64,000 nt of DNA from the NCBI GenBank assembly GCA_903917565.1, contig CAIXBB010000002.1:45818-109817 (forward strand), written 5' to 3'. This DNA is from an uncultured cyanobacterium. GTDB lineage: Bacteria > Cyanobacteriota > Cyanobacteriia > PCC-6307 > Cyanobiaceae. The notes under the pieces were generated by a model. It searched no databases, was not told the origin of the DNA, and saw only the letters and a program-made list of their open reading frames with translations. How positions within the stretch are numbered: position 1 is the stretch's first letter; every line of letters begins with the position of its first letter. The translations under genes and the position numbers were made by a program. Positions 3,232 to 33,176 of the stretch are shown here, piece by piece.

Positions 3232-4644
3232 TCAGTCCTCCTGGTACACCGACACGTACACCGTGCCCTTCTCCACCAGGGGCAGCAGTTTGTCGCGCAG
3301 GTCCTGGTTGTGCAGCCGCACGCAGCCCAGGGTGGAATGCAGAGGCTGGAGCGGGGCCCAGGCGCCGGGCCAGCCGCAGGCCGTACCGCCGCCGTGCACC
3401 ATGATCCCGGCCCGGCCGAAGCGTCGCTCCTGCATCTCCAGATCCTCCAGATCGAAGCTGTACCAGCCGTAGCTGCAACGATCGGCCGAATAGGCGGGGC
3501 TGGGATCCTGCTCGTAATCCCGATAGACCTTCTTCGCGATGCGGTAGATCCCCGGAGGGGTGTCGGTGGAGGTCTCCTTGTATTGGTTCTCCTGCCCCTG
3601 GCCGCGGGCCAGTGCAGGGATCTCCCAGAGCAGCCGGCCCTCCACGTCGTAGGCCTTCGCTGTCTCGGCGGCATCGTTGACCACCACGTGGGAGTCGGTT
3701 CCGCTGAAGCCGAAGTCCTGGGGGGTCTTGCTGGGGCCCACCAGGCCGGGCACCACCATGGGGGGCTCGCCGGCTGCCGCTGGTGCTGTGAAGGCCTGCG
3801 CCACCGGGACGACCGGGACGGAGGCCCCCTGCTTCAGCCGTTGCTCCCACGCCTCGCAGTCGGCGGGCGTGCTGATCTCCCGCTCCGCCTGGGCGCAGGC
3901 GACGGCGGGCTCCATGCCGCCCCATACGAGGCCCTCGGCCCGGCGGCGGCGGCCCAGACCCACCTCCACCGTCTCCCCGGGATTGCGGTACAGCATCAGG
4001 GCGCCGGGAACGGCGTCCCAGCGGTGTTCGCTCAGGTGGCGGTCCAGGGTGTCGTGGTAGCCATCGCCGTGGAAATGGGCGCCGTTGTTGTAGGCGAAGC
4101 TGCACAGGGCAGCCCGCTGGCGGTCGGTCATCTCCCCCCAGAAGGGAATGGTGGCCTCGAGAACCTTCCAGAATTTCTCCTGGCAGTTGTGCTCATAGAG
4201 CGCATCGGCCTGCACCTGGCTGATCCCATCCCCCAGGCGGATGGGGGAACCGTCCTGGTAGAAGGTGCTGCCCCAGCCGATCGTGATCGGTTCGCCACCG
4301 GTGCGGGGGTCGGGGTAGGCCTGCAGGCGGCAACCCTCGTAGTGATGGTTGAGCTGGGCCACCTCGGGGGGCAGCTGGCCATCCCCGGCCGCCGGCAACC
4401 AGGCATCGTCGGGAACGATGAAGCGCTCCGGGTTGAGGTAGCGCTGCTCCCCATCCGGCAGGGGCACGCTGCCACCGGGGCACGTGTAGGGCCCCGCCAG
4501 CCGCACGATCGCCAGGGCCGTACCGGGGGCCGACCGCACCCAGGCCACGGCGATGCGGGAGCCTGCCGCCACAAAGGAATCGGCATCGGCGGCGGCGGGG
4601 CTGGGGCTGAGCCCCGCGTCCTGGCGGGCGGTGATGTACGGCAT
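3232..4644 (-). CDS. bifunctional cell-wall enzyme: GH24 (T4/lambda-type) lysozyme domain fused to a YkuD-type L,D-transpeptidase domain
   Basis: 470 aa. Lysozyme motif HHYEGCRLQAYPDPRTGGEPITIGWGSTF...MTDRQRAALCSFAYNNG. C-terminal L,D-transpeptidase catalytic motif IMVHGGG...HSTLGCVRLHN. No N-terminal signal peptide. The start overlaps the stop of the upstream membrane-protein gene (ATGA at 4644). Confidence 0.8.
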   Translation of the reverse strand: MPYITARQDAGLSPSPAAADADSFVAAGSRIAVAWVRSAPGTALAIVRLAGPYTCPGGSVPLPDGEQRYLNPERFIVPDDAWLPAAGDGQLPPEVAQLNHHYEGCRLQAYPDPRTGGEPITIGWGSTFYQDGSPIRLGDGISQVQADALYEHNCQEKFWKVLEATIPFWGEMTDRQRAALCSFAYNNGAHFHGDGYHDTLDRHLSEHRWDAVPGALMLYRNPGETVEVGLGRRRRAEGLVWGGMEPAVACAQAEREISTPADCEAWEQRLKQGASVPVVPVAQAFTAPAAAGEPPMVVPGLVGPSKTPQDFGFSGTDSHVVVNDAAETAKAYDVEGRLLWEIPALARGQGQENQYKETSTDTPPGIYRIAKKVYRDYEQDPSPAYSADRCSYGWYSFDLEDLEMQERRFGRAGIMVHGGGTACGWPGAWAPLQPLHSTLGCVRLHNQDLRDKLLPLVEKGTVYVSVYQED

Positions 4645-5204
4645 CAGAGGCTTCCCCCCAGGCGGATCCGCTCCAGGGGGGTGAGGGCCGCCGCCGGCGG
4701 GGCAACCGGGGTGGCCGCGCTCACCTGGATCGGGGTGCGGCTACGGGTGATCTCGGCGCGCAGGCGCTCCACTTCGCCGCTCAGCTGGAGCACACGGGAA
4801 TCCTCTGTCGCGGGCGTGGCGGGCGCGATGGCCCCGGGCGAGGCGGTGGCCGCCGCTGCCGCCGTGCCGCCGGAGCCGAGCAGCAGCTCCCGCAGGCCGG
4901 TGCCCTTCAGGTCCCCGAGGCGCTGCTCGGCGTACTTCTGCAGCACCTTGGGAGCGAACGCTCCCAGCAGGAACACGAAGGTGAGGGCCATCCCCGTGTC
5001 GTCCCGGGGGGGATAGGTGATGGTCTCCTGCCCGCTCGAGTCCCGGGTCGTCAGCGGCGCACTGCGCACCATCGTCAGCGCACCGAAGCCGATCGCCGCC
5101 AGCAAGGAGATCAGACACATCAGCCGCATCGCGGATCGGTTGCCCGGAGATTCCTCCAGAAACCCAGTCGTCGGTCCGGCGGCGCCACTGGCAAAGGGGG
5201 TCAT
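4644..5204 (-). CDS. small membrane protein with two predicted TM helices and a C-terminal coiled-coil (holin-like topology; function unknown)
   Basis: 186-aa ORF. Hydrophobic segments LMCLISLLAAIGFGALTMV and MALTFVFLLGAFAPKVL, an Ala/Pro-rich linker, then LQLSGEVERLRAEI. Translationally coupled to the lysozyme/LDT gene. Confidence 0.6.
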   Translation of the reverse strand: MTPFASGAAGPTTGFLEESPGNRSAMRLMCLISLLAAIGFGALTMVRSAPLTTRDSSGQETITYPPRDDTGMALTFVFLLGAFAPKVLQKYAEQRLGDLKGTGLRELLLGSGGTAAAAATASPGAIAPATPATEDSRVLQLSGEVERLRAEITRSRTPIQVSAATPVAPPAAALTPLERIRLGGSL

Positions 5205-5358
5205 GGGGGCGGATTCGCAATGGATTGGCGTCCTAGCCGATTCTGATGGCGGCGACCTGGGCCTTGGACGATCAACCGGTTTCTTGATCTGCGCCGTGGG
5301 TCGAACCGACTCCTTGCCATGCCATCGCCAGGGGGATTGGCCTCGCTGGCGGCATCGG

Positions 5359-5838
5359 TTAGCCCATCGGATCCACGGCCAGGTTGTCGCCGCGTTTTTT
5401 CAGGTTCCCGCGACGGAGATCCAGATTGGCCCTCAGGGTGCCGACCACTTGTTCCAGGTTCGAGTTATCACCGATCAGGCCTTGCAGGATGTCGCCACCC
5501 ACCTGGTCGACCAGCTCGAGTTGGCGATCGATTACCTTTTGCGCCTCGGCCACGGCGCCCCCCAACTCCTGTCGGTAAGCCTCCAGATCGGCACGGATCT
5601 GCCCACGCATCCGGTCCTGGGGATCGTCCTTCTGCACGTCCGGGGTGTTCGTGATCCCTGGGAAGGTGGGAACGGTCAGCAGGGCACCTCTGGGAAGCCG
5701 GCCGATGGCCTCCAGCCCTGGATTGGCCTTCAGCAGGAGCGTTTCGGCCCGTTGCTTCTGTTCCCCGTGCAGGCATCCGTACAGACGTTCGGTGAGCTCC
5801 TGGAGCGTCTTTTCTCCGCGCAGGGTGGTGGTGTCCAT
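5359..5838 (-). CDS. LysM-like N-terminal domain plus coiled-coil protein (CIS-associated, function unknown)
   Basis: 159-aa ORF starting 5 nt after the beta-helix gene stop. LysM-like pattern TLQELTERLYG...LLLKANPGLEAIGRLPRGALLTVP, then a helical/coiled-coil C-terminus. Confidence 0.55.
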   Translation of the reverse strand: MDTTTLRGEKTLQELTERLYGCLHGEQKQRAETLLLKANPGLEAIGRLPRGALLTVPTFPGITNTPDVQKDDPQDRMRGQIRADLEAYRQELGGAVAEAQKVIDRQLELVDQVGGDILQGLIGDNSNLEQVVGTLRANLDLRRGNLKKRGDNLAVDPMG

Positions 5839-5843
5839 GGTCG

Positions 5844-8800
5844 TCAGACTCCGATGAGGTTGGTGAGATCGATCTCCACGGGGATCGAGAGGTTGTCGTC
5901 AATGCTGAAGCGCCCCGAACTCGTGTTGCCCATCACGATCGCGGCCCTTCGGGCCACGGGCTGCAGCCGCATGGTCGGGACCTGGGGGTTGGCCATCAGC
6001 AGATTGTCCGTGGCGCTGATCGAGTCGCCGCTCAGTTCCACCAGCAGCCCCATGGGGGACCCTTCTGGATCCTGTCGTCGCAGAACGTTCCCGGCCAGCC
6101 GCACGTGGCCCGCCAGCAGCGTGCTCATCAACGGTGCCGAACTGGCCACCGCTTCCACTGTGTTGGCCTCGATCGAGGCGTCCCTGGCTCCGCGTTCCAC
6201 CGCCGCCAGGCGATGCTCCGTGAGCAGCCAGGCCACCGTCCCTGGGCGGCTGAGGGGGCGTCCTGGATCAAGAAGGATGGCGGCGAAGGGCCGATAGCGG
6301 ACCGAGCGGTCCAGATCCGGACCCACCAGGAGCGCACCCCAGGACGGAAACAGACCCGGTCGCTCCGAGGCATTCCTCTGCAGCATCCGGTTGCCGCGGA
6401 TGGCGACGCGATCGAAGGGGATGGCCACCCTCAGGCAGTGATACTGCCCGATCCCCTCCGGCGGCCCGATGGCCTCGAACCGGTTGTCGACCAGCTGCAG
6501 GTCCCCCACCGCAAGGACGCGCACCGCGTCCACCGCCGTGATCGATCGAGCCTCGGGGGCGACGTCGTCGAAGGCGTTGCCGCGCAGCTCCGCCTGCCGG
6601 ACGGCCATCAGCTGCACCGCCGCAAACGCCACGTTGCCTTCCCTCTGGCCCAGCCCGAGCTGGCTGAAGTGATTGCCCTCGCACACCAGATGCTCGGCCG
6701 TCGCCGCCTCCGCCATCACCAGGCCCCCGGCCCCCATCCGCTCCACCTGGTTGCCCCGCAGCAGCAGGTGACCCAGGGGGAAGGTCTGATGGATGCCGTG
6801 GCGCTGGAACCCCTCGATGCGGTTGCCCTCCACGGTGACGCGCCGCGGCCCGCGGGGATCGAGTCCCTCCAGCAGCCGGAGGCCATCGCCCCTCCCGGAC
6901 CTGTTCCCCACGATCGTGTTGGCGGTGATCACCAGTCCATCCACCCCTGCCTGCACCCCATCGCCGGCGCTGTCGATGAGATTGGCTTCGATCCGGAAGT
7001 CCCCCTTCGGGAGCACGCCGCCAAGGGCGACCACCCCCGCGGAGCCCTCCGCCGAGGCGACCAGGATCACGTTGTGACGCAGGAGGGTATGGCCCAGATG
7101 GAAGCTCATGTCGTCGAGGGACACCCCTCGCTGGCGGCCCACCAGCACGCAGTTCTCCAGCCGCAGTTCGGCACTCACCAGTTCCCGGCTCACCCCACGA
7201 GCGGCCAGGACGAAGCCCGGCTGGCCCAGGACAGGCACCCGCCCCAGCCCCCAGCCGGCGGCGATGGCGCAGTGGCGGATCGTGGCCCCCAGGATGGTGC
7301 CATTGAGGCCGATGCCCACGCTCGTGCCGCCTTCGCTCTCCAGGCCGAGCAGGTTGCAGCGCTCCACCCGCAGATCCACCACGTTGCGGGCCAGCAGCAT
7401 CGAAGTGGGCAGGTCGGCATTGGCGGCCGATCCCATCAAGGTGAGGTTCTCGACCGTGACGCCGTTGCCGTCGGCGATCGCGAGCACCGGCCCCGGCACG
7501 CGTGCGATCAGCTGGGTGGCCCATCCCTGGCCCCTGATCCGCAGGGAGCGGGCGCCCACCACGGAGATCGGTTCATCCAGGTCGTAGCGGCCGGCGCCCA
7601 GGCACACCGTGCCGCCGCTCTCCTTCACCCGGTTGATCGCCTGCTGCAGGGTGGCGGTTCCTTGGTTGTGGCCTTCGGCCGTGACACAGACGCTGCAGTC
7701 GCAGCCGCCCTGGGCCTGGGGCGGCCAGAGGGTGCGGCAATCGGTGACGCCACCGGTGGAAAAATCGACGACCGCGAGCCGGGCGTAGTGATGGTGAGTG
7801 CCCAGCGGTGGCGCTTTCACCAGGGGCACAGGGATCGAGGCGGTTCCGGAGCGGGCGGCGAACACCCAGTGGGTTCCGGTGGGGATCAGGCCACCGGGGG
7901 GGTCGTGGAAGAACTCCACCGCAATGCCCTGCTCCAGCGGGAGCTTTTCCCCCTTCCCTGGTAGCGGCAAAGCTCCGGATGCCATCAGAGGGTCGTTGTC
8001 CCATTGGCGCACGAGCGTGTTGCGCAGGGCATCCGTTTTCTGTTCCGCATCGGTGGGAAACAATCCCGCTGGCAGGGCGCGGTCGAGCTCAAGTTGATGG
8101 GTCTCCGGCAGAATCTGCTTGATACGGCACAGTTCACCCGGGCGTCCCGCCAGGAGGCACCAGTCATCGGTGACTTCCACCCAGCTGCCCGGACGAAAAC
8201 AGAGGTAGTCGTCCTTCTTCAGTGACTCGACCGTCAGCGTCTGCCGGGCAGGATCCAGATGGCTGACACGGGAAGCCACGATGCCATTGTCCCGCGACCA
8301 CTTCAGTGTGGCCTTGTCGGCAGTGCCGGCATCATGCACTTCGACGCGATACAGCTGGTTCTCAAGCCCCGTGTAGTCGGCATTGGGCGCTACATCGCAG
8401 CGATCATCAATCAGCTCGGAATCGCCCGTGTGGGTGGAGAGACGCACCGAAACCGGTGCCAGGATCTCCTTCCATCCCGGGATCTCATCCTCTTTGCTGG
8501 CGCAGGAGATCGCTACACCATTTTCGTTTGGCAACACTTTCACCTGCCAGACGGTCTGGCGCCTGCCGGTGGTGTCGCTACCCACCGCCGGTTCGATCAA
8601 TCCTGGATCCTGCAGGGCCGTGACGTCGCGCCTCCAGACATCGAGATAAATCAGATGCTGGCCTTTCTCCGGTAGGCCAGCATCGCTGCCCAGATGCTGC
8701 TTGATGTAGCTGCTGTCCTTCAGATAGGGCTGATAGGGCTGCTCCTCGTAGGGGATTGGATCCACTCCCGCCAGCTCCTCCAGTCGCGGATCCCACTGAT

Positions 8801-9083
8801 CCGGCGGCGCGCCATGGTTTTCGGCCAGCAGCCCATCCACGTAGATCCGGCCAGGGCCGATGCTGATCCTGCCGCCGGAAACCTTGATCTCAAAGCCGTT
8901 CGGAGTGGTGCGTGGAACAACGGTGCCGTTGAGGCCATCGAGGGATCCGGCCTGCAGCCTGCGGCTCAGCTGAGCCACCCATTCATTCCAGTCGGAGTCG
9001 AGCTGCACCCGGCCCTGCTGCAGGATCACCTCGTGGAAATCACGGCGGGCATCGAAGTTGATGCGACTGAGATCAAAACTCAT
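5844..9083 (-). CDS. large right-handed parallel beta-helix repeat protein; candidate tail-fibre, receptor-binding or anchoring component of the CIS
   Basis: 1079 aa. Conserved-looking N-terminus MSFDLSRINFDARRDFHEVILQQGRVQLDSDWNEW. C-terminal half has repeated PbH1-like units (GNRIEGFQRHGI, GNQVERMG, GNHFSQLG, DNRFEAIG, GNRMLQ, GNVLRR). Sits where Afp13-type fibre genes sit, directly after the gpI-like gene. Confidence 0.75.
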   Translation of the reverse strand: MSFDLSRINFDARRDFHEVILQQGRVQLDSDWNEWVAQLSRRLQAGSLDGLNGTVVPRTTPNGFEIKVSGGRISIGPGRIYVDGLLAENHGAPPDQWDPRLEELAGVDPIPYEEQPYQPYLKDSSYIKQHLGSDAGLPEKGQHLIYLDVWRRDVTALQDPGLIEPAVGSDTTGRRQTVWQVKVLPNENGVAISCASKEDEIPGWKEILAPVSVRLSTHTGDSELIDDRCDVAPNADYTGLENQLYRVEVHDAGTADKATLKWSRDNGIVASRVSHLDPARQTLTVESLKKDDYLCFRPGSWVEVTDDWCLLAGRPGELCRIKQILPETHQLELDRALPAGLFPTDAEQKTDALRNTLVRQWDNDPLMASGALPLPGKGEKLPLEQGIAVEFFHDPPGGLIPTGTHWVFAARSGTASIPVPLVKAPPLGTHHHYARLAVVDFSTGGVTDCRTLWPPQAQGGCDCSVCVTAEGHNQGTATLQQAINRVKESGGTVCLGAGRYDLDEPISVVGARSLRIRGQGWATQLIARVPGPVLAIADGNGVTVENLTLMGSAANADLPTSMLLARNVVDLRVERCNLLGLESEGGTSVGIGLNGTILGATIRHCAIAAGWGLGRVPVLGQPGFVLAARGVSRELVSAELRLENCVLVGRQRGVSLDDMSFHLGHTLLRHNVILVASAEGSAGVVALGGVLPKGDFRIEANLIDSAGDGVQAGVDGLVITANTIVGNRSGRGDGLRLLEGLDPRGPRRVTVEGNRIEGFQRHGIHQTFPLGHLLLRGNQVERMGAGGLVMAEAATAEHLVCEGNHFSQLGLGQREGNVAFAAVQLMAVRQAELRGNAFDDVAPEARSITAVDAVRVLAVGDLQLVDNRFEAIGPPEGIGQYHCLRVAIPFDRVAIRGNRMLQRNASERPGLFPSWGALLVGPDLDRSVRYRPFAAILLDPGRPLSRPGTVAWLLTEHRLAAVERGARDASIEANTVEAVASSAPLMSTLLAGHVRLAGNVLRRQDPEGSPMGLLVELSGDSISATDNLLMANPQVPTMRLQPVARRAAIVMGNTSSGRFSIDDNLSIPVEIDLTNLIGV

Positions 9084-9096
9084 GACGTGAACTCCT

Positions 9097-11346
9097 TCAG
9101 GATTCGTAGAAGATTCCGGCAGACAGGCCGACTCTCAGGTATTCAGCGATCCGCAACCTCAGATTGTTTTCCCTTTGGGGCATCCAGAGATGGTGGAAAA
9201 CGCCCATCTCGCCATCGTCCGTCCCGCCACTCAGGATGGCATCGGGAGTCTGGCGGCTCAGCCTTCCGTAAGCAGGGTTCCCATAACGCAGCGAGGTGAA
9301 CACGGGTCTGGCAGGGACGGGCGCTTCTCCCTTGGGCAGGCAGTGGAAGGGGGCCGGCAGCCTGGAGCCGGGAGGGATCCAGGAGAAGCGAACGCAACCC
9401 ACCTGCCGGCGTGCCGCCCGCACCGGCGCCGCCCAGCCGGCACCGGGCGCCGCCAGCAGGATGCAGTCGGAGATCACGTCCACCGCCGCGGTGAAGATCC
9501 GGCCGATCACGGTGCATCCGAGCAGCGTCAGCTCAGGGCCAGCGACCGGTGGCGAGCCGCTGGCAGGCTCGCTGCCCATCAGAGCCACCAGCGTGGGAGC
9601 GGTGGCGTCGATCAGGCAGGCCGTGGCCTGGAGTGTTGCCGTGGCAGGAGCGCGGATGGCACCCACGATGCAACGCTCAAGCACCAGCGCCTTCAGCGCA
9701 GCGGCCTTGAGCGCATCGTCCGTCACCGTGAGGCTGGCAACGAGCGGATCTCTGGGAGACCCGTCGGGGCGGAGGGCCAGACCAGGCACCAGGGTGCAGT
9801 GGCGAAGTTCCAGCCGTTCCAGACGGTTGTCGACCAGCACCGGCCCACCGGTGATCAACAGGCCCTCGAGCACACAGCAGCTGCCCTGCTCTCCCTCCAG
9901 GGTGAGCCGATCGATGAGCAGCACGGGCCTGAAGCGATTGGCGGCACGGATCGTCACCGTGCTCTCGGCGTTCACCGCCACCGTCAGGGAGCCGAGGGAA
10001 TGGGTGGCGTTGTCGGTGATCTCCACGATCCCTTGCCCGCCGAGGGCTTGCAGGGCGTCCGCGATCGTGGGGAAGACCGGCCAGGGGGAATCCAGCGTGG
10101 CGGGCACGGGCACCTGCACCAGCGGCGTTGGGCCTCCATCCGGTCCCGGTTCGACGCTCAGCGGTCGGTCGTACTCCCCCCCACCGAGATCGGCCTGGGC
10201 GGTGAAACCCTCGTGCCAGCTGAGCCGCACCTCGGCGGGGGTGTCGTCGGGGTCGGGGATCGAGGCGGGCAGGACGATGCGACCCAGCACCGGATCGATG
10301 GCATAGAAGCCGGCAGGCGGCGGCGTGTGGGCCCAGCCCAGGCCGTCATCACCCAGGTGGCAGATGCGGATCTTGGCGCGATCGATGGTCATGTACTCCC
10401 CCTTCTCCTTCACCCAGAGGCAAAGGCTCGGATACGGATCCGTGTCGTTGCCGGGCGGCGGCCCGTACAGGCGCTCCAGATGCTCCTTCGCGTAGCGCCG
10501 GCCGAGGGGCAGCGGCACATTCTGAGGCTGTGTCAGATGGCTGATGGCCTCCTCCCGTTCCGGTCGCTGGAAGAGCGGGGTGTCGTGTCCGAGGGGACTG
10601 GCCCGGTAGCGGCCACTCCCCACCCGGGTAACGCTGCTCTGGGTACGGGGGCAGGCCTCGATCCGCCAGAGGTGAATACCGACGTGGGGGATGTTGTGCC
10701 GGCCCCGTTCAGGATCAATCGGACGCACGTCCACGCTGCGTTGGGCGGTTTCGAAGGGAGTGCCGAGCCAGGCGAGGTCAGCCCCCCGGCGGAGGTCCGG
10801 CGTCTGCCGGACCATGGGCCGCAGGTGGTTCATGTGCTGGCTGGCGATGAGCCGCTGGAAGTACTCCACCGCGCGCGCGGGCAGGCCGATACCGTCCTGG
10901 GCCAGTTGCTCCAGCACCGGGGCCGTGCCCTTGCGCCGGCGCAGAGCGATGGTGCGGGCCACCTCGGAGCGGGAACGATCGCGTGCCTGACCCAGGGGAT
11001 GGAGGGGCTCGTAGCCGACCAGATCGCCGATGTAGGGAATCATCCAATCGGCGCAGGTTTCGATGAAGAAGTCGTCGTAGAGCTGGGCAAAGGATTCCTC
11101 CAGCACCGCCAGTTCAGCGGCGAAGACCTCCAGCAGCGAAGCCAGGGGGCCGCGCGACGCCTTGGCCCGCAACCGGTTCGCCCGTTGCTGTTCGAGGGGT
11201 GTCGGGGCATCGAGCGCCGAGAGTGCCGCGAGCTCGGCGGCTTCGGCTGGGGTGAGCAGCCCCTCCATCGCAGCGGCGCTCTCCTCGTCCCGGAGGCGGT
11301 AGAGCGCCGGGAGCAGGCCCAGGAGGGTTTCGGCGTCGAAGCTCAT
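9097..11346 (-). CDS. baseplate protein, P2 gpI-like N-terminus (Afp12/Cis12-like) with a large C-terminal extension
   Basis: 749 aa. N-terminus MSFDAETLLGLLPALYRLRDEE...DWMIPYIGDLVGY is typical of the phage tail protein I family. Start overlaps the upstream gpJ-like gene (11343-11346). Confidence 0.8.
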   Translation of the reverse strand: MSFDAETLLGLLPALYRLRDEESAAAMEGLLTPAEAAELAALSALDAPTPLEQQRANRLRAKASRGPLASLLEVFAAELAVLEESFAQLYDDFFIETCADWMIPYIGDLVGYEPLHPLGQARDRSRSEVARTIALRRRKGTAPVLEQLAQDGIGLPARAVEYFQRLIASQHMNHLRPMVRQTPDLRRGADLAWLGTPFETAQRSVDVRPIDPERGRHNIPHVGIHLWRIEACPRTQSSVTRVGSGRYRASPLGHDTPLFQRPEREEAISHLTQPQNVPLPLGRRYAKEHLERLYGPPPGNDTDPYPSLCLWVKEKGEYMTIDRAKIRICHLGDDGLGWAHTPPPAGFYAIDPVLGRIVLPASIPDPDDTPAEVRLSWHEGFTAQADLGGGEYDRPLSVEPGPDGGPTPLVQVPVPATLDSPWPVFPTIADALQALGGQGIVEITDNATHSLGSLTVAVNAESTVTIRAANRFRPVLLIDRLTLEGEQGSCCVLEGLLITGGPVLVDNRLERLELRHCTLVPGLALRPDGSPRDPLVASLTVTDDALKAAALKALVLERCIVGAIRAPATATLQATACLIDATAPTLVALMGSEPASGSPPVAGPELTLLGCTVIGRIFTAAVDVISDCILLAAPGAGWAAPVRAARRQVGCVRFSWIPPGSRLPAPFHCLPKGEAPVPARPVFTSLRYGNPAYGRLSRQTPDAILSGGTDDGEMGVFHHLWMPQRENNLRLRIAEYLRVGLSAGIFYES

Positions 11347-20900: not shown

Positions 20901-20910
20901 CTTCAGGTCG

Positions 20911-21582: not shown

Positions 21583-21914
21583 TTCCGCACCCTTTTCCTG
21601 TCATATTCGTATTTCAAAATTGAGCCTGACCCCGTTGATACTTGCCATGCGAGTCAACTCGATGACTGATTTAATATTTCAAAATTTCCGGAATACACCT
21701 TTCACGCTTGCATCCCTGAGGTGCTCTCGCCCCTAATCCCGGTTTCGTAATATGGTTTGGAAAGTCATTTTTATCCTTCACTTATCTCCATTAAGTCCGA
21801 TTATCGCACCTTGCCGCTCGCTATTAACGTGGTCCCCAATTCCCATGCTTCCCAGCTATTGCTTTCTATATGGATCCCAATTGCTGCTCGAGAGAGGGTT
21901 ATCTCAAACCATGC

Positions 21915-22442
21915 TTACTCGACACCGCAGGCGAATTGAAGTACGACTTCAAAGTCATGCTTTAGGTCTAGAATCTTGCCAAGTTGTGTATCGTAGGTTG
22001 AAAACCCGCCTACGGACTCGAGAATCTCAAGACAATCCCAAAGAACCCGAAGGGCGTGAATGCATGCGTGCGCCTCCCCCACGAAAGAAAAGGAAGCTCC
22101 AGCTCCCTCATCAAAGATCAGGATTTGGATCCACAGCTTCTCCTCATTGAGTTCCACGGTTCTGAAGAGTCGTCGCGCCTCCGCCTCGGTAATACCTCGA
22201 GCTTTCGCAATCCCAAAATAATCACGCTTATACAACTCCAGCGTAGGATGTCGAGCGATTAAATCAGATGCAAGCCGTTGCTTTAGTTGTTCTTTGTTCG
22301 GATCAATTGAGTCTAGATCGGCCGAATCTGGCGCTTTATCCGAAGTTCTTTTCAGCTCTTCCATTTTCTGATGGTATGCCTTATGCCGATCAAGGCCCGC
22401 TGGAAGGCGAATTAGATCAAATCCGTAGCTCATTAGCTTCAA
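21915..22442 (-). CDS. hypothetical cytoplasmic protein; candidate immunity/antidote for the adjacent effector
   Basis: 175-aa intact ORF, low GC, 34 nt downstream of the effector stop, same strand. No signal peptide or TM helix. No recognisable domain. Confidence 0.6.
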   Translation of the reverse strand: MKLMSYGFDLIRLPAGLDRHKAYHQKMEELKRTSDKAPDSADLDSIDPNKEQLKQRLASDLIARHPTLELYKRDYFGIAKARGITEAEARRLFRTVELNEEKLWIQILIFDEGAGASFSFVGEAHACIHALRVLWDCLEILESVGGFSTYDTQLGKILDLKHDFEVVLQFACGVE

Positions 22443-22476
22443 TCCTCTTTCAGTGAAAACAACAATTTCTTTGTTA

Positions 22477-25002: not shown

Positions 25003-25259
25003 GTCCCGATCTCCTTGCCGATGCCCTGCGCCACGTTCTCCCCGACGCGCTGGGGCTTTGATCCCTGCTCAAACTGCACGCCGTTCACGTGCATCCGCGA
25101 CAGGTCTCCCCTGTCCCTCAGGTCTGAAATCACATCACGATCCGCGAAAACCCGCCCCAGCTCCTCCCGCAGCCCCTCGGCAATAGCGTGCCGATGTTCA
25201 CTGGGAAAGCCGTTGAGCACCAGCCGGTCGATGTGAATGATCACCCGCTTCATGGCCAA
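24999..25259 (-). CDS. small conserved-looking CIS-associated protein (possible effector adaptor/chaperone)
   Basis: 86-aa ORF. Stop overlaps the effector start (ATGA at 24999-25002). Start overlaps the end of the AAA+ ATPase gene. N-terminus MAMKRVIIHIDRLVLNGF. Confidence 0.6.
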   Translation of the reverse strand: MAMKRVIIHIDRLVLNGFPSEHRHAIAEGLREELGRVFADRDVISDLRDRGDLSRMHVNGVQFEQGSKPQRVGENVAQGIGKEIGT

Positions 25260-27187: not shown

Positions 27188-28524
27188 TTCACCGCCATCC
27201 GCTTGTTGAGAAATTCGGGCGGTTGCTTGGTCCTATCCACCGATGGACTCTCAATGCCGTCGATCCGCAGCCGCACCAGATGACCCAGCGTGCCCGTGGG
27301 GGTGAGCTCTGCTTCCTTCATCAGGAACTCCAGCTTGTCGGTGCTGTCGCTGGGGATCGCTTTGGGCTTCACGCCCCGCCCACCGACCAGCGCCATGACC
27401 TGCTGCCCCGGCCGCAGGCGGGGCTGGAACTTCACCGTGAAGCTGATGGCGCCGCTGGCGTCTCGAGAGACGCTGGTGGGCAGGCTTGTGATCTCCGGAG
27501 CCAGCACCAGCGCCAGATCATTCGAGTGCTGCAGCTCGGTGGCAGCGGCCCCCACGGTCCGCTCCATCCGCACACCCACCCGGTAGATCCCCACGGGGAA
27601 ATCCGCCGCCCTTGCCACCGGCACCTGGAACCGGAGGGTTCGTGCCGGGTCGTCGGTCGACTCGGCCGGCCCCTCCGCAAGTCTGACGGCATCGATCTGG
27701 AAGCGATCATTGCTGAGCACGGCCACACGGTTGCTGCCATCGAGGTGATGGCCCTGCAACTCGATCGTCGCCCCCAGGCGCGTCATCGGCTGCCCGTCTG
27801 CCGGCACCACCGCCGTGAGGGTGGGCACCGCGGGCTCCATGGTGGCCTGCACGTCCACGCCGGGATCGCGCGGTTGCCCGGGCACCACCCTGCCGCGGCT
27901 GAGCACCGGCAGCGGAGCCCGCGCCGGCTCGTCGGTCTGGATCAGAACAACGCTCGCCCGGTAGGTGGTGGAAGGCCTGAAATTGCTGAGCGTGGCTGAC
28001 CACAGCTTGGTGAGTTCTTCGCTGCTCAGCATGTCCGGGGTGATCCGGATCCGCTCGATCTGGTGTTCCAGGCCCGAGGCGGCGAGCGCCTTTCCGAGGG
28101 CCGTCGCTGGGGGGCTCGAGGGCGGATCGAGCAGCGTGCGAATCCTGGTCCGTGAGAACTCCGGCCGTTCGTGCAGTTCCTGCATCGCCAGGCCCAGCAG
28201 GATCTCTCCCTGCAGATCGGCGGCGCTGTAGGCGGAGAGCAGGTAGTGCAGATCGATCGCCAGCGGCCTCTGGCTCAACCGCTGGCGACCCGAGGCATCA
28301 CGGCTGGGCAGATCCTGATTGCACCAGCCGGCGTTGGTGGTCACCTGGTGCAGAAACAGATTCAGCTGTGGCACCTCCGTGCCGCGCACCACGCGGTCGG
28401 GAGGCAGCACACTCACCTTCACGCCGTTGCCAAGAATCCTGATCGTGGCATCAGCACTCAGCACTTCACTCAGCTGCTTCTGCATCACGGAGGTCACCGC
28501 CGCGATGGCCATGGCATTGCTCAT
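27184..28524 (-). CDS. DUF4255-domain protein (Afp16/Cis16-like tail terminator/cap) with long C-terminal extension
   Basis: 446 aa. N-terminus MSNAMAIAAVTSVMQKQL...LNLFLHQVTTNAGWCNQDLP...PLAIDLHYLLSAY matches the DUF4255 pattern. About 250 extra beta-rich residues follow. Confidence 0.8.
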   Translation of the reverse strand: MSNAMAIAAVTSVMQKQLSEVLSADATIRILGNGVKVSVLPPDRVVRGTEVPQLNLFLHQVTTNAGWCNQDLPSRDASGRQRLSQRPLAIDLHYLLSAYSAADLQGEILLGLAMQELHERPEFSRTRIRTLLDPPSSPPATALGKALAASGLEHQIERIRITPDMLSSEELTKLWSATLSNFRPSTTYRASVVLIQTDEPARAPLPVLSRGRVVPGQPRDPGVDVQATMEPAVPTLTAVVPADGQPMTRLGATIELQGHHLDGSNRVAVLSNDRFQIDAVRLAEGPAESTDDPARTLRFQVPVARAADFPVGIYRVGVRMERTVGAAATELQHSNDLALVLAPEITSLPTSVSRDASGAISFTVKFQPRLRPGQQVMALVGGRGVKPKAIPSDSTDKLEFLMKEAELTPTGTLGHLVRLRIDGIESPSVDRTKQPPEFLNKRMAVK

Positions 28525-29270
28525 CGGCCCGCTCCTTTGCGGCCCGCCAGGTAGTCCTCCAGCGTGGTGATGCGCTGTTGCGGCGCTCCGGCGACCCGGG
28601 GTGCGGCCGGCTCCGGGGCCGCCGTCACATCGATCCGTCCGATGTGCACATGCACTTCCGTGGTTTCCTCCACGGCTTGGCCGTTCCTGTTCCGCTCCAA
28701 GCCATGGGTGTCGGCGGCCGGCGGCTGGGGTTGCTGCCAGGAGGGCCCGGTCGCATCCACCGCGAGCAGCGGCGCCAGCTGCTGGGCGATGGCGGCCAGA
28801 TCCAGCGGCCCTTGCGGCTCGCTCCCGTGGTCGCCAGAAGGAACGATCCGCTCTTCGAGCGCTGTGGCCGCCAGCTCAGGAAGCGCCCGTTCGGTGCTGG
28901 ATCGATCGGCGGCGGGAGGTGGTATCGCGCCATCTGGCCCGGGCTTCTCCAGTGGGGCCACCGGTCCGGGTCCCACGCGGGTTGAAGCGGGCGCGGCTCC
29001 AGGCCGATGGCTGGGTTCGGGGGGCGGCATCCGGTCCGTGCCCGTCGACCCTTCCCTGCCGATGCGGCGACCCTGGCTCGTGTTGCTGTCTGGCCTGGCG
29101 CCAGGGGGGCCGGGTTCCAGCGCCAACCCGAGCGCGCCCTCGGCGGCATCGATGGGAGCCGCGGCTGCCGCCATCTCGGGCACCGGGGCGAACGGCAACC
29201 CATGGGCCGAGTGCACCCGAGGTGTGTCGCCCTGGGCGCGGGAGACCAGCCGCTGCAGGAAGCCGCTCAT
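28521..29270 (-). CDS. Pro/Ala-rich CIS-associated protein (possible tape-measure-like / assembly protein)
   Basis: 249-aa ORF, translationally coupled on both sides. N-terminus MSGFLQRLVSRAQG, a low-complexity middle, and C-terminus EVHVHIGRIDVTAAPEP...ITTLEDYLAGRK. Confidence 0.6.
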   Translation of the reverse strand: MSGFLQRLVSRAQGDTPRVHSAHGLPFAPVPEMAAAAAPIDAAEGALGLALEPGPPGARPDSNTSQGRRIGREGSTGTDRMPPPEPSHRPGAAPASTRVGPGPVAPLEKPGPDGAIPPPAADRSSTERALPELAATALEERIVPSGDHGSEPQGPLDLAAIAQQLAPLLAVDATGPSWQQPQPPAADTHGLERNRNGQAVEETTEVHVHIGRIDVTAAPEPAAPRVAGAPQQRITTLEDYLAGRKGAGR

Positions 29271-29998
29271 GGCCCCACCAGGGAGAGGTACGCCGCGCGG
29301 CGTTGCCGGCTCAGGCCCAGGATCTCAGCCTCTCGCCAGCCATAGGCCCTGGCGAGCCGATGCACCTCCAGCAGCAGGGAGCGCACCCTGCTGCCCAGCT
29401 CCTCCCACAGCAGCGAGAGCACATCGAGATGGAGCTCTCCTTGATGCCCACAGGCTCCGCAGTCCACCGTCAGGGCAAGGTCCGCGGCGGGATCCAGCTC
29501 TTCCAGGGCGGCGCTCACCGCCTCGATGGGCGGCGCTGCAGCGGGGATGGCGTCCCCCGCCGCTGCCTCCCGATCAGGGGAGCCGATGCGGCAACGCTCC
29601 ATGAGTAGCGTTGCGGCGCCTGGTGGATCGTGCACCGCGTTCAGGGCGGCCAGGTCGCGGCTGGTGGGGGCGCGGAAGCGCTGGCCTGCCACCACGACGC
29701 TGGCCTCGGCGGTGGCTGGCTGCCCTGCCTGGAGCAGCTGGCCGGCATCGAGCGGCAGATCCAGGCGAACGCCGCAGGCTTCGCAGTCGGCATAGCCCTC
29801 GATCCTGTTGCCGAAGATGGCCCGCCGCAACTGAACCAGCGCCAGATGGATCTGGCCCAGCGGCAGATCGGGCAGGGAGGCGGGGGGCTGCTCCGGGTGC
29901 ATCCAGGCATAGAGCAGCAAGGCTCGGTCGATCGGATGCCGCAGCGATCCGATCTCCCAGAGGTGGAGCAGATCAAGGTCGCTGGGGGGGCGGATCAT
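29267..29998 (-). CDS. CIS-associated protein with two CxxC motifs (zinc-ribbon-like), function unknown
   Basis: 243-aa ORF between the tube gene and the Pro-rich gene. Motifs YADCEACGVRLDL and VDCGACGHQGELHLD. Overlaps the downstream gene. Confidence 0.65.
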   Translation of the reverse strand: MIRPPSDLDLLHLWEIGSLRHPIDRALLLYAWMHPEQPPASLPDLPLGQIHLALVQLRRAIFGNRIEGYADCEACGVRLDLPLDAGQLLQAGQPATAEASVVVAGQRFRAPTSRDLAALNAVHDPPGAATLLMERCRIGSPDREAAAGDAIPAAAPPIEAVSAALEELDPAADLALTVDCGACGHQGELHLDVLSLLWEELGSRVRSLLLEVHRLARAYGWREAEILGLSRQRRAAYLSLVGP

Positions 29999-30000: not shown

Positions 30001-30525
30001 TCAGGCGGGCTCGGAATACTCGACTTCGCTGGGCTCGGTCACGTCGTAGTCACGCTCCCAGCCTTCGTTCTCGAGCTTGATGTGCTGAATCGCCACGGCG
30101 TTGGCGTTGGCGTCGAGGTCGGGCAGGGCCTGGAATTCCGACACCCAGCAGCGGAACAGCTTGTAGGCCAGCGCCAGCTGGCCGGCCTCGTTGTAGACCT
30201 CCAGGATCAGATCCTTGCGGAAATTCTTCAGCGATACTTCCGCTCCCAGACCCGAACCGAAGTTCCACACCTTGTTGGCCCACTTCTCGAACTCGGTGTC
30301 ATGGGTGACACCACGCTCTAGCTGAATCGCCTCGAACTTGGTGCGGCCGGGCGATTTTCGAGACGTGGAAGGATCGCCGCCCTCGCGGTGCTCCACAAGC
30401 TCCGTGCTGCGCTTGAGTGCCCCCACCTTGGAGATCCCGGCCACGTAGCGGCCATCCCACTTCACCCGGAACTTGAAGTTCTTGTAAGGGTCGAAACGCT
30501 GGGCATTGACACTGAACTGGGCCAT
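30001..30525 (-). CDS. phage tail tube protein, T4 gp19-like (Afp1/Cis1-like inner tube)
   Basis: I call the internal start at 30525 (MAQFSVNAQRFDPYKNFKFRVKWDGRYVAGISKVGALKRSTE...), preceded by AGGAGAC. The longer track ORF (to 30918) overlaps the sheath gene. FKFRV..DG....G.SKV is the hallmark of this tube family. Confidence 0.9.
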   Translation of the reverse strand: MAQFSVNAQRFDPYKNFKFRVKWDGRYVAGISKVGALKRSTELVEHREGGDPSTSRKSPGRTKFEAIQLERGVTHDTEFEKWANKVWNFGSGLGAEVSLKNFRKDLILEVYNEAGQLALAYKLFRCWVSEFQALPDLDANANAVAIQHIKLENEGWERDYDVTEPSEVEYSEPA

Positions 30526-30536: not shown

Positions 30537-33176
30537 CTAGGTGGCGATCTGGCCGGCGATCTGCTGGAAGCTGATCACCACGAATTCGGCGGGTTTGAGG
30601 GGAGCGAAGCCCACCAGGATGTTGACCACCCCCAGGTTGATGTCGTTCTGGGTGGTGGTCTCCCGGTCGCACCTCACGAAGTAGGCCTCGCGGGGACTGC
30701 GCCCCTGGAAGGCCCCCTGCCGGAACAGGTTCTGCAGGAAGGCGCCGATGTTGAGCCGGATCTGGGCCCAGAGCGGTTCGTCGTTGGGTTCGAACACCAC
30801 CCACTGGGTGCCCCGGTAGAGGCTCTCCTCCAGGAACAGGGCCAGCCGCCGCACGGGCACGTACTTCCACTCGGAGGCCCGCTGATCGCTGCCGTCGAGG
30901 GTGCGGGCGCCCCAGCACACCTTGCCGTAGGCGGGGAAGGTGCGCAGGCAGTTGATGGCGATCGGGTTGAGCACGCCGTTCTGGCCATCGTTCAGGGGCA
31001 CCTCCATCTGTTGCACGTTTTTCAGGCTGGCCTCAGTGCCGGCAGGAGCTTTCCACACCCCCCGGTCGCTGTCGGTGCGGGCATAGAGGCCGGCCATGGT
31101 GCCGCTCGGGCCAACGTTGCGCAGGCGGTAGTCATTGAGCGGATCGGGGATCAGCAGCCGGGGGAAGTAGAGCGCGGCATTGCGGCTGCGCAGATCACCG
31201 TCGCCATTGAGCCAGTTCCTCACCTCCTCCACCGAGTCGAGATCGTTCGGGGGATCCACCAGCAACATGGCCCGTCGATCGCTGCAGTAGTTGGCCGCGG
31301 CCTTGATCAGCGTGGCGCTCTTGATCCGGGCGGCGGCAGGGATGGCATCGAGGGCATTCGGTTCGATCACCATCGAGGCCCTGGGGATGCAGAGGATGTT
31401 GAACAGGTCGATGTCATCCAGCATCCGCATGGCGGCGATGAGCTCAGGCACCCCCGGCAGGTCTCCGTCGACACCCTCCGTGCCTGCCTTCTGGGCCGTT
31501 GGCTGGGCCGTTGAACCAACTTTTCCTCCCCCCAGCCGGTAGGACTGGACGTTGGCGCTGGCGCTGTCGAGCGCCAGATCTGTGACGGTGGTGGTGTCTG
31601 GGGCAGCAAAGCGGACCTGCGCGGCTGTGGTGCCGCCAGCCATCATCACCAGGTGCTTCCCCGCACCTGACTCCTCCTGCACCAGCACCCGGGCCTCGGT
31701 GAAGCTAGGACGGCGAGCGGGGTTCGCTGCCCGGATCGCCTCCTGCAATCCTGCGGCGGCGGCGCTCGGGTCGGTAGCGGGAGCGGCATTCGCGAAGGTG
31801 GCTTTGAAAGGGCCATCCGCTCCGATGCTCACCTGAACCGCCTGGCCGGCGGCAATGGAGAAAGTGGTTGGCAGGGTATCGGAGAGCGTCGCCTCGATAG
31901 TGTCCGGGGCAGCAAAGCCGAGATTGTCGAAGAGGGCATCAGAATCCTTCTTGCTAAGCGCCAGGGTCTTGGCCGGATCCCCTGAGAGCACCAGCAGCTG
32001 CTTGAGGGAGCCGGTTTCAAGGGGCAGCACGATGGCCTTTTTCAGAGCGTCGGAACCAGTGGCGGCGCGGATTTCCTTCTGGAGTTCCACGGCGGCCGCG
32101 TTGAGATCAGCCATCGGTCCGGCGAGATTGAGCGTCTGCGTCGTGCCTCCTGGCGATTCGGTCACATCCACGTTGCCAGCGCTCAGCGGCAGATTGGCGG
32201 CGATGTCTGTGGAGAGCAGCCCCTTGAGGGTTTGCGCCTTCGCCGTGAGGCCGAGCTGGTCTGCGATCGATGCGGGCTCAGCCTCAAAGCGGATCCTGGC
32301 TCCGGGCAGGCTGGGGCCGGCAAGAATCCGCAGCTTCTCGTTCACGATCTGCACCCGTGCCTGGGCGAAGGCCCGATCGTCAGGCCGGCAGGACTGGATC
32401 GCCTGCTCCAGCTGAAGCCGCGCCTCCACCAGGGTCCTGGGTTGGCCGCTCAGCTGGGCGGTTCCGCTTCGCCCCTCCTCCCCGATAAGGCTCACCAGAA
32501 GGTTCCCCTGCTTCGCCCTGACCCCGGTGAAGCCGCTGAGATCACGCGAGAGCGTGCCGGTGGCCAGTGGCGGTTCCGTTCCATTCACCGTTTTGATCCT
32601 GATCAGCTTCGAGCCGCTGGTGTCGTCGTTCACCAGCGTCTTCACGAAGCTGGGGGAGGCTGGATCCATCGAGAGGTTGAAGAAACTCTCGGAGGTCACC
32701 ACCTGTTCCTTGCCCCCTGCCGATCGGACGAGAGCCACGGTGAGGTTGAACCGCTTGGGAAGCGACGCCGGTGGGTCATCGATGCTGATCCGCAGTCCTT
32801 GCAGCCCGTCGTTGGCGCCCCCCCAGGCTCCAGGGTTGATCGCGGACACCTTGAGGACCGTCGAGCCGCCGATGGCGCTGGCGATCTCGACATCCGCGGT
32901 GCTCGTGCTCGAGGAGACGGCCCTGGCGATCCAGGCCTCGGCGCCACCGTTCTGGAAGAACTGATGGATGGCATAGCTCGCCTCGCTGCGCGGATCGAGA
33001 CCACCGAACAGCCGCTCGAACTCCGCCAGGCTGAGCACCTGCACGGCCCCATCGCTGGGCCCTTGCGCAAAGTGGTCCACGAAGGCCGTGATTGAGGTGG
33101 CCACGCCGGTGATGGTGCGGACACCGCTGGAAACTTCCTGGATGTAGACCCCTGGATGGGTCAGGGGAATCGGCAT
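30537..33176 (-). CDS. contractile tail sheath protein (Afp2-4/Cis2-like) with a large internal triplicated insertion
   Basis: I call the start at 33176 (MPIPLTHPGVYIQEVSSGVRTITGVATSITAFV, canonical sheath N-terminus). C-terminal sheath block KAPAGTEASL...LNPIAINCLRTFPAYGKVCWGARTL..., ending REAYFVRCDRETTTQNDINLGVVNILVGFAPLKPAEFVVI. 879 aa. Confidence 0.9.
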   Translation of the reverse strand: MPIPLTHPGVYIQEVSSGVRTITGVATSITAFVDHFAQGPSDGAVQVLSLAEFERLFGGLDPRSEASYAIHQFFQNGGAEAWIARAVSSSTSTADVEIASAIGGSTVLKVSAINPGAWGGANDGLQGLRISIDDPPASLPKRFNLTVALVRSAGGKEQVVTSESFFNLSMDPASPSFVKTLVNDDTSGSKLIRIKTVNGTEPPLATGTLSRDLSGFTGVRAKQGNLLVSLIGEEGRSGTAQLSGQPRTLVEARLQLEQAIQSCRPDDRAFAQARVQIVNEKLRILAGPSLPGARIRFEAEPASIADQLGLTAKAQTLKGLLSTDIAANLPLSAGNVDVTESPGGTTQTLNLAGPMADLNAAAVELQKEIRAATGSDALKKAIVLPLETGSLKQLLVLSGDPAKTLALSKKDSDALFDNLGFAAPDTIEATLSDTLPTTFSIAAGQAVQVSIGADGPFKATFANAAPATDPSAAAAGLQEAIRAANPARRPSFTEARVLVQEESGAGKHLVMMAGGTTAAQVRFAAPDTTTVTDLALDSASANVQSYRLGGGKVGSTAQPTAQKAGTEGVDGDLPGVPELIAAMRMLDDIDLFNILCIPRASMVIEPNALDAIPAAARIKSATLIKAAANYCSDRRAMLLVDPPNDLDSVEEVRNWLNGDGDLRSRNAALYFPRLLIPDPLNDYRLRNVGPSGTMAGLYARTDSDRGVWKAPAGTEASLKNVQQMEVPLNDGQNGVLNPIAINCLRTFPAYGKVCWGARTLDGSDQRASEWKYVPVRRLALFLEESLYRGTQWVVFEPNDEPLWAQIRLNIGAFLQNLFRQGAFQGRSPREAYFVRCDRETTTQNDINLGVVNILVGFAPLKPAEFVVISFQQIAGQIAT

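Follow-up and report, generated by a model that had tools for sequence, protein, structure and literature searches.

Thousands of loci encode extracellular contractile injection systems (eCIS), which cyanobacteria, too, are known to carry. The Afp system of Serratia and the PVC system of Photorhabdus belong to subtype Ia (PMC6899500). The contractile injection system (CIS) of Streptomyces coelicolor and Streptomyces venezuelae, CIS(Sc), is of subtype IId; it acts in the cytoplasm of its producer, and has a transmembrane/sugar-binding adaptor (Sco4242) and no conventional fibre (PMC10066040). The thylakoid-anchored CIS (tCIS) of Anabaena sp. PCC 7120 (PDB 7B5H) is anchored by a transmembrane helix in the fibre-like Cis13, reported in filamentous cyanobacteria only, together with an extension of Cis12 and a Cis19 crown (PMC8894136). 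Here we describe an eCIS locus in a 64,000-nucleotide stretch of DNA from an uncultured cyanobacterium of the Cyanobiaceae (assembly GCA_903917565.1, contig CAIXBB010000002.1, positions 45,818 to 109,817; hereafter the window). An earlier note on this DNA, made from the letters alone, had recognised a contractile injection locus of the Afp/PVC type and left its mode of action open. In our reading, which we consider probable, the locus is an acquired island in a Cyanobium/Synechococcus picocyanobacterium, encoding an extracellular, lineage II, IIa-like system with an eBAP5-type fibre and an exchangeable toxin/partner cargo.

The gene array and its closest relatives

The cluster occupies the minus strand from 33176 to 5359 and consists of 20 intact, tightly packed genes and one pseudogene (Table 1), in agreement with the co-directional organisation proposed earlier. 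Most junctions overlap or leave only a few bases between genes. ATGA overlaps occur at 29267, 28521, 27184, 24999, 18130, 16873 and 11343; three further junctions that had been listed as ATGA, at 19624, 14237 and 4644, are in fact one-base TGATG overlaps. The genes expected of an eCIS are present: a sheath, a gp19 tube, a Pvc16_N/DUF4255 cap, a dedicated AAA+ ATPase, a gp25/Baseplate_J/spike core and a DUF4157 gene. Pfam matches support the earlier assignments of sheath, gp19 tube, tube-like initiator, spike, gp25 and the two gpJ-like proteins, as well as the cap and ATPase that had been put forward as distinguishing markers. None of the cluster proteins matched a capsid, portal, terminase, integrase, TssB/C, TssM or ClpV family in Pfam or PHROG, and no phage replication or regulatory genes were found among the matches. 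With the structural families and both markers matched, the locus is a headless contractile injection locus, as the earlier note had it, and neither a prophage tail nor a type VI secretion system. No recognisable match to an Afp14-type tape-measure gene was detected in the locus. NCBIfam and PHROG searches with ten unannotated cluster proteins returned no matches beyond weak LysM-type ones, and PDB searches by phmmer and with ortholog profiles found nothing for the 380-aa hub, the 749-aa and 243-aa proteins or the Pvc16-like cap.

We compared the sheath with solved structures in the PDB. The closest are the Streptomyces CIS (8BKY/8BL4, 7.6e-72) and a haloarchaeal CIS (9EZM, 9e-69), followed by weaker matches to Pvc2 (1e-45) and Afp2/3 (~1e-40; the Afp/Pvc range extends to 1e-39). 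Further matches are Anabaena All3325 of the tCIS (4.5e-37), AlgoCIS (4.6e-37) and a pyocin (1.6e-6). The match to 8BKY covers the C-terminal 290 aa. At residues ~183-560 the sheath has a single, lineage-specific ~330-aa insertion in its variable outer domain, common to the second picocyanobacterial lineage described below and missing in the Variovorax and Acidobacteriota orthologs, which total ~545-550 aa. Self-BLAST revealed no internal repeat.

The gene order is kept in 30 genome loci of several phyla, with proteins 45-90% identical. Syntenic loci are found in Hydrogenophaga and other Burkholderiales, Variovorax, Nitrosomonas, Methylococcaceae and Neptunomonas, and in metagenome-assembled genomes (MAGs) of Acidobacteriota, Actinomycetota, Chloroflexota and Bacteroidota. 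The common order begins with the sheath, the tube, two small conserved genes, the Pvc16 cap, the AAA+ ATPase, a small gene and a variable DUF4157 cargo, and continues with CIS_tube, the LysM-like protein, the 380-aa hub, the gp5-like spike, the PAAR-like protein, gp25, two Baseplate_J proteins, the 749-aa protein and the DUF6519 fibre. The window locus shares this order and degree of identity with uncharacterised IIa/eBAP5-fibre loci (in Hydrogenophaga, Variovorax, Nitrosomonas, Methylococcaceae, Acidobacteriota, Actinomycetota and others), and differs from them in its picocyanobacterial host, in the sheath insertion (relative to the two orthologs above) and in its lineage-specific cassette.

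The published dbeCIS gene-content criteria allow a subtype to be proposed. Two copies of afp11 are found in IIa or IIc only; afp8 is split into gp27-like and gp5-like open reading frames (ORFs) in IIa, IIb and IIc; afp10 (PAAR) is missing in IIb only; divergent afp12/afp13 characterise IIa and IIb, and lineage II typically has no afp14 (PMC6899500). In the window there are two Baseplate_J genes, a weak PAAR-like gene and a DUF6519 fibre with a 749-aa adaptor candidate. The spike is non-contiguous, the gp5-like ORF being just 189 aa long and the neighbouring 380-aa ORF without a gp27 match. Since these features meet at the intersection of the criteria in subtype IIa, the locus appears to fit lineage II, subtype IIa by its gene content. 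The Afp/PVC label, in its narrow sense, consequently had to be given up, the Streptomyces and haloarchaeal sheaths also being closer than Pvc2 or Afp. Afp and PVC work on the same principle and share the sheath, gp19 tube, gp25, Baseplate_J, Pvc16_N and AAA+ components. However, their several sheath genes, single afp11, contiguous VgrG, Afp14, adenovirus-like fibres and 3'-end cargo were not seen in the window, where there is one sheath gene and the cargo lies mid-operon.

The island and its host

On either side of the cluster, the window runs collinear with an eCIS-free Cyanobium genome (GCA_024346455.1, locus L119), in which the cluster itself is missing. By blastn, its positions 7557-9500 align with window positions 3230-5209 at 83% identity, and its positions 9568-17187 with window positions 33788-41415 at 90% identity. 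At the site where the window has the island, the reference has 67 bp of intergenic DNA. Because collinearity holds on both flanks with just these 67 bp between them, the acquired unit is delimited as 5210-33787. The left boundary of 3232 given in the earlier note is therefore too far out, the genes at 3232-5204 being resident in the eCIS-free Cyanobium. Judged from these alignments, the 28.6-kb island is horizontally acquired and chromosomal. We scanned its ends for tRNA genes, integrase genes and att or boundary repeats, and found none. Head genes adjoining the locus had been named earlier as the sign of a prophage remnant; both flanks are instead collinear with the eCIS-free Cyanobium, so that the cluster has no head genes beside it, and the esterase and katG on either side are the ordinary chromosomal genes they had been taken for.

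Since the flanking katG, glycogen phosphorylase and FdhF/YdeP cluster, at 90% identity or more, with named proteins of Cyanobium or freshwater Synechococcus, the host is evidently a high-GC Cyanobium/Synechococcus picocyanobacterium, in line with what the earlier note had suggested conditionally. The G+C content of the whole window is ~70%. A second picocyanobacterial lineage, a MAG labelled Synechococcus sp. UW140 (loci L004 and L120), carries the cluster at the same katG-adjacent site. Its flanking DNA is ~92-93% identical to that of the window, and its katG-sheath junction, on a 130-kb contig, is the same. The window itself is matched by several independently assembled metagenome contigs of up to 123 kb. 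The sheath protein recurs on 9 contigs; in several assemblies the hub shares its contig, of up to 123 kb, with katG and glycogen phosphorylase.

The 611-nt leader 5' of the sheath gene is part of the island, as it is missing from the empty site of the reference genome. It is ~85-90% conserved relative to L120/L121. No sigma-70 consensus and no Rfam match were found in the leader, and scans for promoters and terminators were uninformative.

An exchangeable cargo cassette

Between the ATPase gene and the second tube gene lies a variable cargo cassette with a G+C fraction of 0.45-0.62, against ~0.70 around it. By blastn, the cassette has no DNA similarity to the second lineage (L004), while its flanks are 92-93% identical. 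The breakpoints are sharp: one is located ~37 codons into the 84-aa gene (25149), of which only these first codons are conserved with L004, the remainder lying inside the cassette; the other coincides exactly with the CIS_tube start codon (20289). In place of the cassette, the second lineage has 2.3 kb encoding a different DUF4157 protein of 652 aa (L120 15710-17668), with annexin-type repeats (5e-9), a C-terminal region without assignment and no immunity-like gene 3' of it. Family-wide, the same position holds 0.25 to ~5 kb of variable genes, most of them containing DUF4157. The cargo cassette is thus compositionally foreign and exchangeable. A pseudogene of a divergent CIS_tube (Afp5-like) protein lies at its 3' edge, 37% identical to the intact gene product over aa 2-149 and with a 34-aa internal deletion. 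This tube-gene remnant points firmly to an origin of the cassette in another, lower-G+C eCIS locus with the same downstream neighbour. In the ~1 kb between the pseudogene and the nearest cassette gene, no recognisable gene was found and tblastx matches were noisy.

The first complete gene of the cassette encodes an 841-aa predicted polymorphic toxin headed by DUF4157. The N-terminal DUF4157 domain is followed by a repeat-containing linker, a coiled-coil stretch and a ~100-aa C-terminal domain. DUF4157 is a marker of eCIS, and both the DUF4157-N/toxin-C architecture and eCIS toxin/immunity pairs have been documented (PMC8213781). The linker contains five copies of a 51-nt tandem repeat (23195-23448), corresponding to 17-aa units of the PVVKSD type. 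Because a 98%-identical sister protein (P0155) is one 17-aa unit shorter, the copy number varies in the population. An exhaustive HMMER search for the C-terminal domain yielded 687 representatives, in every case at the C-terminus of proteins ranging from 100 to 2086 aa. RHS repeats were present in 14/37 sampled relatives and DUF4157 in 11/37. No Pfam model covers the domain across the 37 relatives, no Pfam match was found below E 0.1 and there was no PDB profile match. Residues R763, D766, E777, K779 and D796 are invariant across the 37 relatives and E742 is nearly so. The resulting E742...R763xxD766...E777-x-K779 pattern suggests a PD-(D/E)xK-like nuclease, a call made from the motif as opposed to a profile or fold.

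The toxin gene is followed by a gene encoding a 172-aa candidate immunity protein. In L035, L036/L037 and L038, three eCIS loci independent of one another, DUF4157 genes with this toxin domain (41-64% identity) have a homolog of the partner (47-67% identity) directly 3' of them; the gene arrangement is the same in a fourth place, the toxin domain having been seen in three. This repeated linkage to the same toxin domain suggests that the partner is likely the cognate immunity protein. An AlphaFold2 (AF2) model of the partner is confident, with a pLDDT of 89. A fold search of the PDB with this model gave no significant relative, the best match being SirA (E 4e-3, TM-score 0.36), and no Pfam family was matched. 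The arrangement resembles polymorphic toxin systems, which combine RHS or DUF4157 carriers at the N-terminus with exchangeable C-terminal toxin domains and cognate immunity genes: the ~100-aa C-terminal domain of the 841-aa protein also occurs in RHS and in other DUF4157 proteins, and a conserved gene for the partner comes after it. The arrangement differs from them in that delivery would be by an eCIS and not by a type VI secretion system or by contact-dependent means, and in that both domain and partner lie outside Pfam.

The position of the cargo differs between branches of the eCIS family. In L036/L037 and L038, the fibre-region genes are followed by arrays of DUF4157 effector genes, two to four in each, as opposed to the mid-operon position in the window; in L036/L037 the array is directly 3' of the DUF6519 fibre gene.

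Fibre, baseplate and spike

The 1079-aa tail fibre combines an N-terminal DUF6519 domain with a C-terminal right-handed beta-helix. DUF6519 corresponds to eBAP5, a baseplate-anchoring domain of eCIS fibres, which often have beta-helix C-termini and a predicted partner of the Tail_P2_I type (PMC12923769). The same catalogue records eBAP2 and eBAP4 for Cyanobacteriota and correlates eBAP5 mainly with Actinobacteriota (PMC12923769), so that an eBAP5 system in a cyanobacterium is somewhat unusual. No strongly hydrophobic segment was found in the fibre: the best 19-residue Kyte-Doolittle window scores 1.77 and lies in the beta-helix part, as compared with 2.34 for the best window of the resident 186-aa protein with two transmembrane segments. 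The same hydropathy scan found no clear transmembrane helix in any island protein.

Surroundings of the fibre gene were counted in 80 related metagenomic loci. The gene for the 749-aa protein, a presumed fibre-carrying baseplate component, is directly 5' of the DUF6519 fibre gene in 77/80. Tail_P2_I is matched by 2/13 orthologs of this protein (best E 0.0012), the window protein itself having no Pfam match. The last island gene, encoding 159 aa, has a homolog 3' of the fibre gene in 21/80 loci; its product matches phrog_46 (4e-5) and Phage_tail_X (0.011).

For three of the components proposed earlier the profile matches are weak: the gpI-like 749-aa protein; the PAAR-like protein, whose ortholog profile matches the phiKZ PAAR tip in the PDB with E 0.002 and DUF4280 with 0.057; and the 120-aa LysM-like protein, with phrog_46 baseplate hub at 3.7e-4, Phage_tail_X at 0.033 and a LysM chain (PDB 9gtp_P) at 0.21. 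The gpD-like hub fared worse. The 380-aa protein at this position has >7000 homologs at 60-84% identity, and no family was found for it by Pfam, NCBIfam, PHROGs or PDB sequence and profile searches. An AF2 model built on a 27-sequence alignment had a pLDDT of 34.5 and was not used. We presume that it is the gp27-like half of the split spike because it adjoins a spike protein with the gp5-type OB fold only, and a split afp8 has been described (PMC6899500).

Across the hub gene and into the spike gene at its 5' end (17900-19300), DNA identity to L004 falls to 68-78% within an alignment of otherwise 92-98%. This looks like a second recombination tract, a probable allelic replacement distinct from the cargo cassette.

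Other conserved proteins

The 243-aa protein encoded 3' of the tube gene has invariant cysteines in a CxxC...CxxC arrangement (C72, C75, C180 and C183), which suggests that it may bind zinc; its only matches are sub-threshold (T4_baseplate 0.001, phrog_150 0.005). In the Pro/Ala-rich 249-aa protein, conservation in relatives is limited to the C-terminal part, and a length-determining or assembly role is no better than a guess. The ATPase has a single AAA domain of the Cdc48/VCP type, and its top PDB matches are VCP/Cdc48, not ClpV. The models of the 174-aa tube gene and the 84-aa small gene were taken from public gene calls.

Table 1. Features of the eCIS island and its immediate flanks, in window coordinates
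Feature	Position	Strand	Size	Basis or remark
Esterase	2260-3219	+		PF00756 1.5e-28; flank opposite katG
GH24 Phage_lysozyme and YkuD L,D-transpeptidase-fold fusion	3232-4644	-		Resident host gene; Pfam
Protein with two transmembrane segments	4644-5204	-	186 aa	Resident host gene; transmembrane scan
eCIS island	5210-33787	-	28.6 kb	blastn against GCA_024346455.1
Last island gene	5359-5838	-	159 aa	Weak LysM/tail-X-like N-terminus
Tail fibre	5844-9083	-	1079 aa	N-terminal DUF6519 (eBAP5) 3e-33; C-terminal Beta_helix 2.3e-5, right-handed
Presumed fibre-carrying gpI/Afp12-like baseplate protein	9097-11346	-	749 aa	Weak ortholog profile and position
Baseplate J-like 2 (Afp11-like)	11343-14237	-	964 aa	Baseplate_J 1.3e-9
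Baseplate J-like 1 (Afp11-like)	14237-16876	-	879 aa	Baseplate_J 1.3e-6
gp25-like baseplate wedge	16873-17238	-	121 aa	GPW_gp25 2.5e-16
PAAR-like spike tip	17242-17562	-	106 aa	Weak profile support
Spike OB-fold protein (gp5/VgrG C-terminal-like)	17564-18133	-	189 aa	Phage_base_V 4.6e-19
Presumed gp27-like half of split spike/hub	18130-19272	-	380 aa	Position only
LysM/tail-protein-X-like baseplate protein	19262-19624	-	120 aa	Weak matches; position conserved
Second tube-family protein (CIS_tube, Afp5/tube-initiator-like)	19624-20289	-	221 aa	CIS_tube 4.6e-9
Variable cargo cassette	20290-25148	-	4.86 kb	Between ATPase and second tube gene
Divergent CIS_tube (Afp5-like) pseudogene	20550-20891	-		Cassette 3' edge; tblastn E 7.5e-27
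Candidate immunity protein	21915-22433	-	172 aa	43 nt 3' of toxin gene
Predicted cargo toxin	22477-25002	-	841 aa	eCIS_core/DUF4157 4e-30, N-terminal, HEXXH
Small protein	24999-25253	-	84 aa	No family match
AAA+ ATPase (Afp15/Cis15-like)	25250-27187	-	645 aa	AAA 1.2e-27, WHD 2.6e-16
Tail terminator/cap (Afp16/Pvc16-like, DUF4255)	27184-28524	-	446 aa	Pvc16_N 6.4e-40 over 200 residues
Pro/Ala-rich conserved protein	28521-29270	-	249 aa	Family searches without match
Conserved subtype-specific protein	29267-29998	-	243 aa	Position kept in related loci
Inner tube (gp19/Afp1-like)	30001-30525	-	174 aa	Phage_T4_gp19 3e-40
Sheath (Cis2/Afp2-like)	30537-33176	-	879 aa	Phage_sheath_1C 1.5e-9; PDB CIS sheaths to 7.6e-72
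Leader/promoter region	33177-33787	-	611 nt	GC 0.53; 5' of sheath gene
katG	33802-36024			Island flank

Neighbouring genes

The esterase lies within a ~1-kb segment (2184-3229) without counterpart in L119, where a 111-aa gene is found instead; the difference is a small indel beside the island and separate from it. On the other side, collinearity with L119 breaks again at 41415-44113: additional DNA is found in the window there, a sigma-70-family gene (41429-42802) among it, and in L119 this DNA is missing or rearranged at that position. Further away, a host gene set on the minus strand at 55021-62972 (DUF2126 amidoligase-like, transglutaminase-like, Alpha-E and circularly permuted ATP-grasp proteins) is unrelated to the eCIS.

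Two resident genes lie 3' of the island, encoding the lysozyme/YkuD fusion and the protein with two transmembrane segments. The pair was considered as an eCIS lysis cassette and rejected: in the island-free Cyanobium genome the two genes are found at the same site, directly beside katG, and in 0/80 of the related loci does either lie 3' of the fibre gene. A 54%-identical homolog of the lysozyme/YkuD protein is encoded on an otherwise unrelated 178-kb, 39%-GC viral contig from IMG/VR (L034).

Mode of action

The comparisons above establish which parts the locus has, that it is an island and that its toxin/partner module is exchangeable. With respect to function, an extracellular, fibre-targeted antibacterial injector is most likely. 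The tail fibre together with the toxin/immunity pair suggests extracellular antibacterial use, and as a result the mode of action is now less open than the earlier note had left it. The targets would include bacteria, possibly competing picocyanobacteria, since a conserved immunity-like partner argues for targets so closely related to the producer that self-protection matters. The individual steps can be proposed from established eCIS knowledge (PMC8213781, PMC8894136, PMC12923769). The particle would assemble in the cytoplasm on its baseplate and be capped by the Pvc16-like protein, with the AAA+ ATPase and the DUF4157 domain serving in assembly or toxin loading. Particles would then leave through lysis of a fraction of the producers. 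Binding of the beta-helix fibre to a surface glycan of the target cell would be followed by sheath contraction, driving tube and spike through the envelope and delivering the toxin. There the C-terminal PD-(D/E)xK-like domain would act as a nuclease, while the 172-aa partner would protect the producer and its kin.

Several points weigh against this reading. Everything beyond gene content is deduced from sequence; the nuclease call is drawn from a motif, the roles of the 380-aa hub and the gpI-like 749-aa protein from position, and subtype IIa from gene content as opposed to a tree of Afp11 or the sheath. The island has no holin/endolysin or other lysis gene of its own. In addition, the closest solved sheaths, those of the Streptomyces and haloarchaeal CIS, come from systems that act intracellularly or by contact and are not released.

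This last point bears on the possibility of a cytoplasmic, host-directed system like CIS(Sc), whose particles would stay inside the cell and fire on stress, leading to regulated cell death. CIS(Sc) has the closest solved sheath (8BKY/8BL4), belongs to lineage II and has a cap and an ATPase. Lysis genes are missing from the island, and a recognisable tape-measure gene is missing from both systems (PMC10066040). However, CIS(Sc) is without a fibre and, as a IId system, has a single afp11 and a contiguous afp8, whereas the window locus has an eBAP5/beta-helix fibre, two afp11 copies, an apparently split afp8 and a predicted toxin/immunity pair. Unlike a system with an adaptor of the Sco4242 type, the island encodes no protein with a clear transmembrane segment. 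A toxin with an immunity-like partner is also easier to reconcile with attack on other bacteria than with killing of the producer itself. A CIS(Sc)-like role is on balance unlikely.

Alternatively, the eCIS could have become wired to the resident pair described above, which is co-directional with the island and begins 154 nt 3' of the final island gene. It is conceivable, albeit speculative, that transcription of the eCIS operon reads through into the pair. Such read-through would lyse a subpopulation of cells and release nuclease-bearing particles, with the insertion in the sheath and the exchanged hub allele as host adaptations. If so, the system would be an altruistic-lysis weapon against competing picocyanobacteria or associated heterotrophs, and could add to the turnover of strains in lakes. 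The pair's presence at the site in the island-free genome and its absence from the related loci have been set out above, and we regard this scenario as rather improbable.

An Anabaena-type tCIS, anchored to thylakoids and exposed in ghost cells alone, would be in keeping with a thylakoid-bearing cyanobacterial host, with the presence of cap and ATPase genes in both systems and with the abundance of CIS loci in cyanobacteria (PMC6899500). The fibre, however, lacks the strongly hydrophobic segment expected of a membrane anchor and has an N-terminus of the eBAP5 type and not the eBAP4 of tCIS, and the All3325 sheath is far more distant than those of Streptomyces and haloarchaea. This makes a tCIS very improbable. 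A prophage tail that has become defective, or a tailocin of the R type that kills by membrane depolarisation without cargo, seems to us equally improbable. Contractile-tail genes, a Tail_P2_I-like fibre carrier as in R-pyocins and an adjoining phage-type lysozyme gene could suggest either, but a tailocin would not be expected to have the eCIS markers Pvc16_N, AAA+ ATPase and DUF4157 cargo. Head, replication, integrase and regulatory phage genes are lacking, the DNA on either side is that of the host, the lysozyme gene already occupies its place in the island-free genome and the pyocin sheath match is very weak. Finally, an assembly or binning artefact, in which a betaproteobacterial cluster was misjoined to cyanobacterial DNA, might be suspected from the metagenomic source and from the nearest non-cyanobacterial relatives, Hydrogenophaga and other Burkholderiales of similar GC, but is scarcely credible given the recurrence of the sheath on 9 contigs, the co-location of hub, katG and glycogen phosphorylase in several assemblies, the precision of both junctions relative to the Cyanobium reference and the same katG-sheath junction in the ~92-93% identical second lineage.

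Significance

Cyanobium/Synechococcus picocyanobacteria are major primary producers in lakes. Our literature search found no paper tying them to contractile injection systems. What is new here is modest, and consists of the picocyanobacterial host, a cassette exchange resolved to its exact breakpoints and the unannotated toxin and partner families. Cargo turnover is apparent from two lineages of ~92-93% identity in their flanking DNA, whose DUF4157 effectors are wholly different while the breakpoints coincide exactly. The analysis also flags an unannotated C-terminal toxin domain family, with its 687 representatives and its RHS and DUF4157 carriers, along with a candidate immunity family. The picture of eCIS biology is unchanged by this locus, which adds a well-resolved case to an already well-catalogued class. 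If the system is active, it would provide a means of interference competition or of regulated lysis in picocyanobacterial populations.

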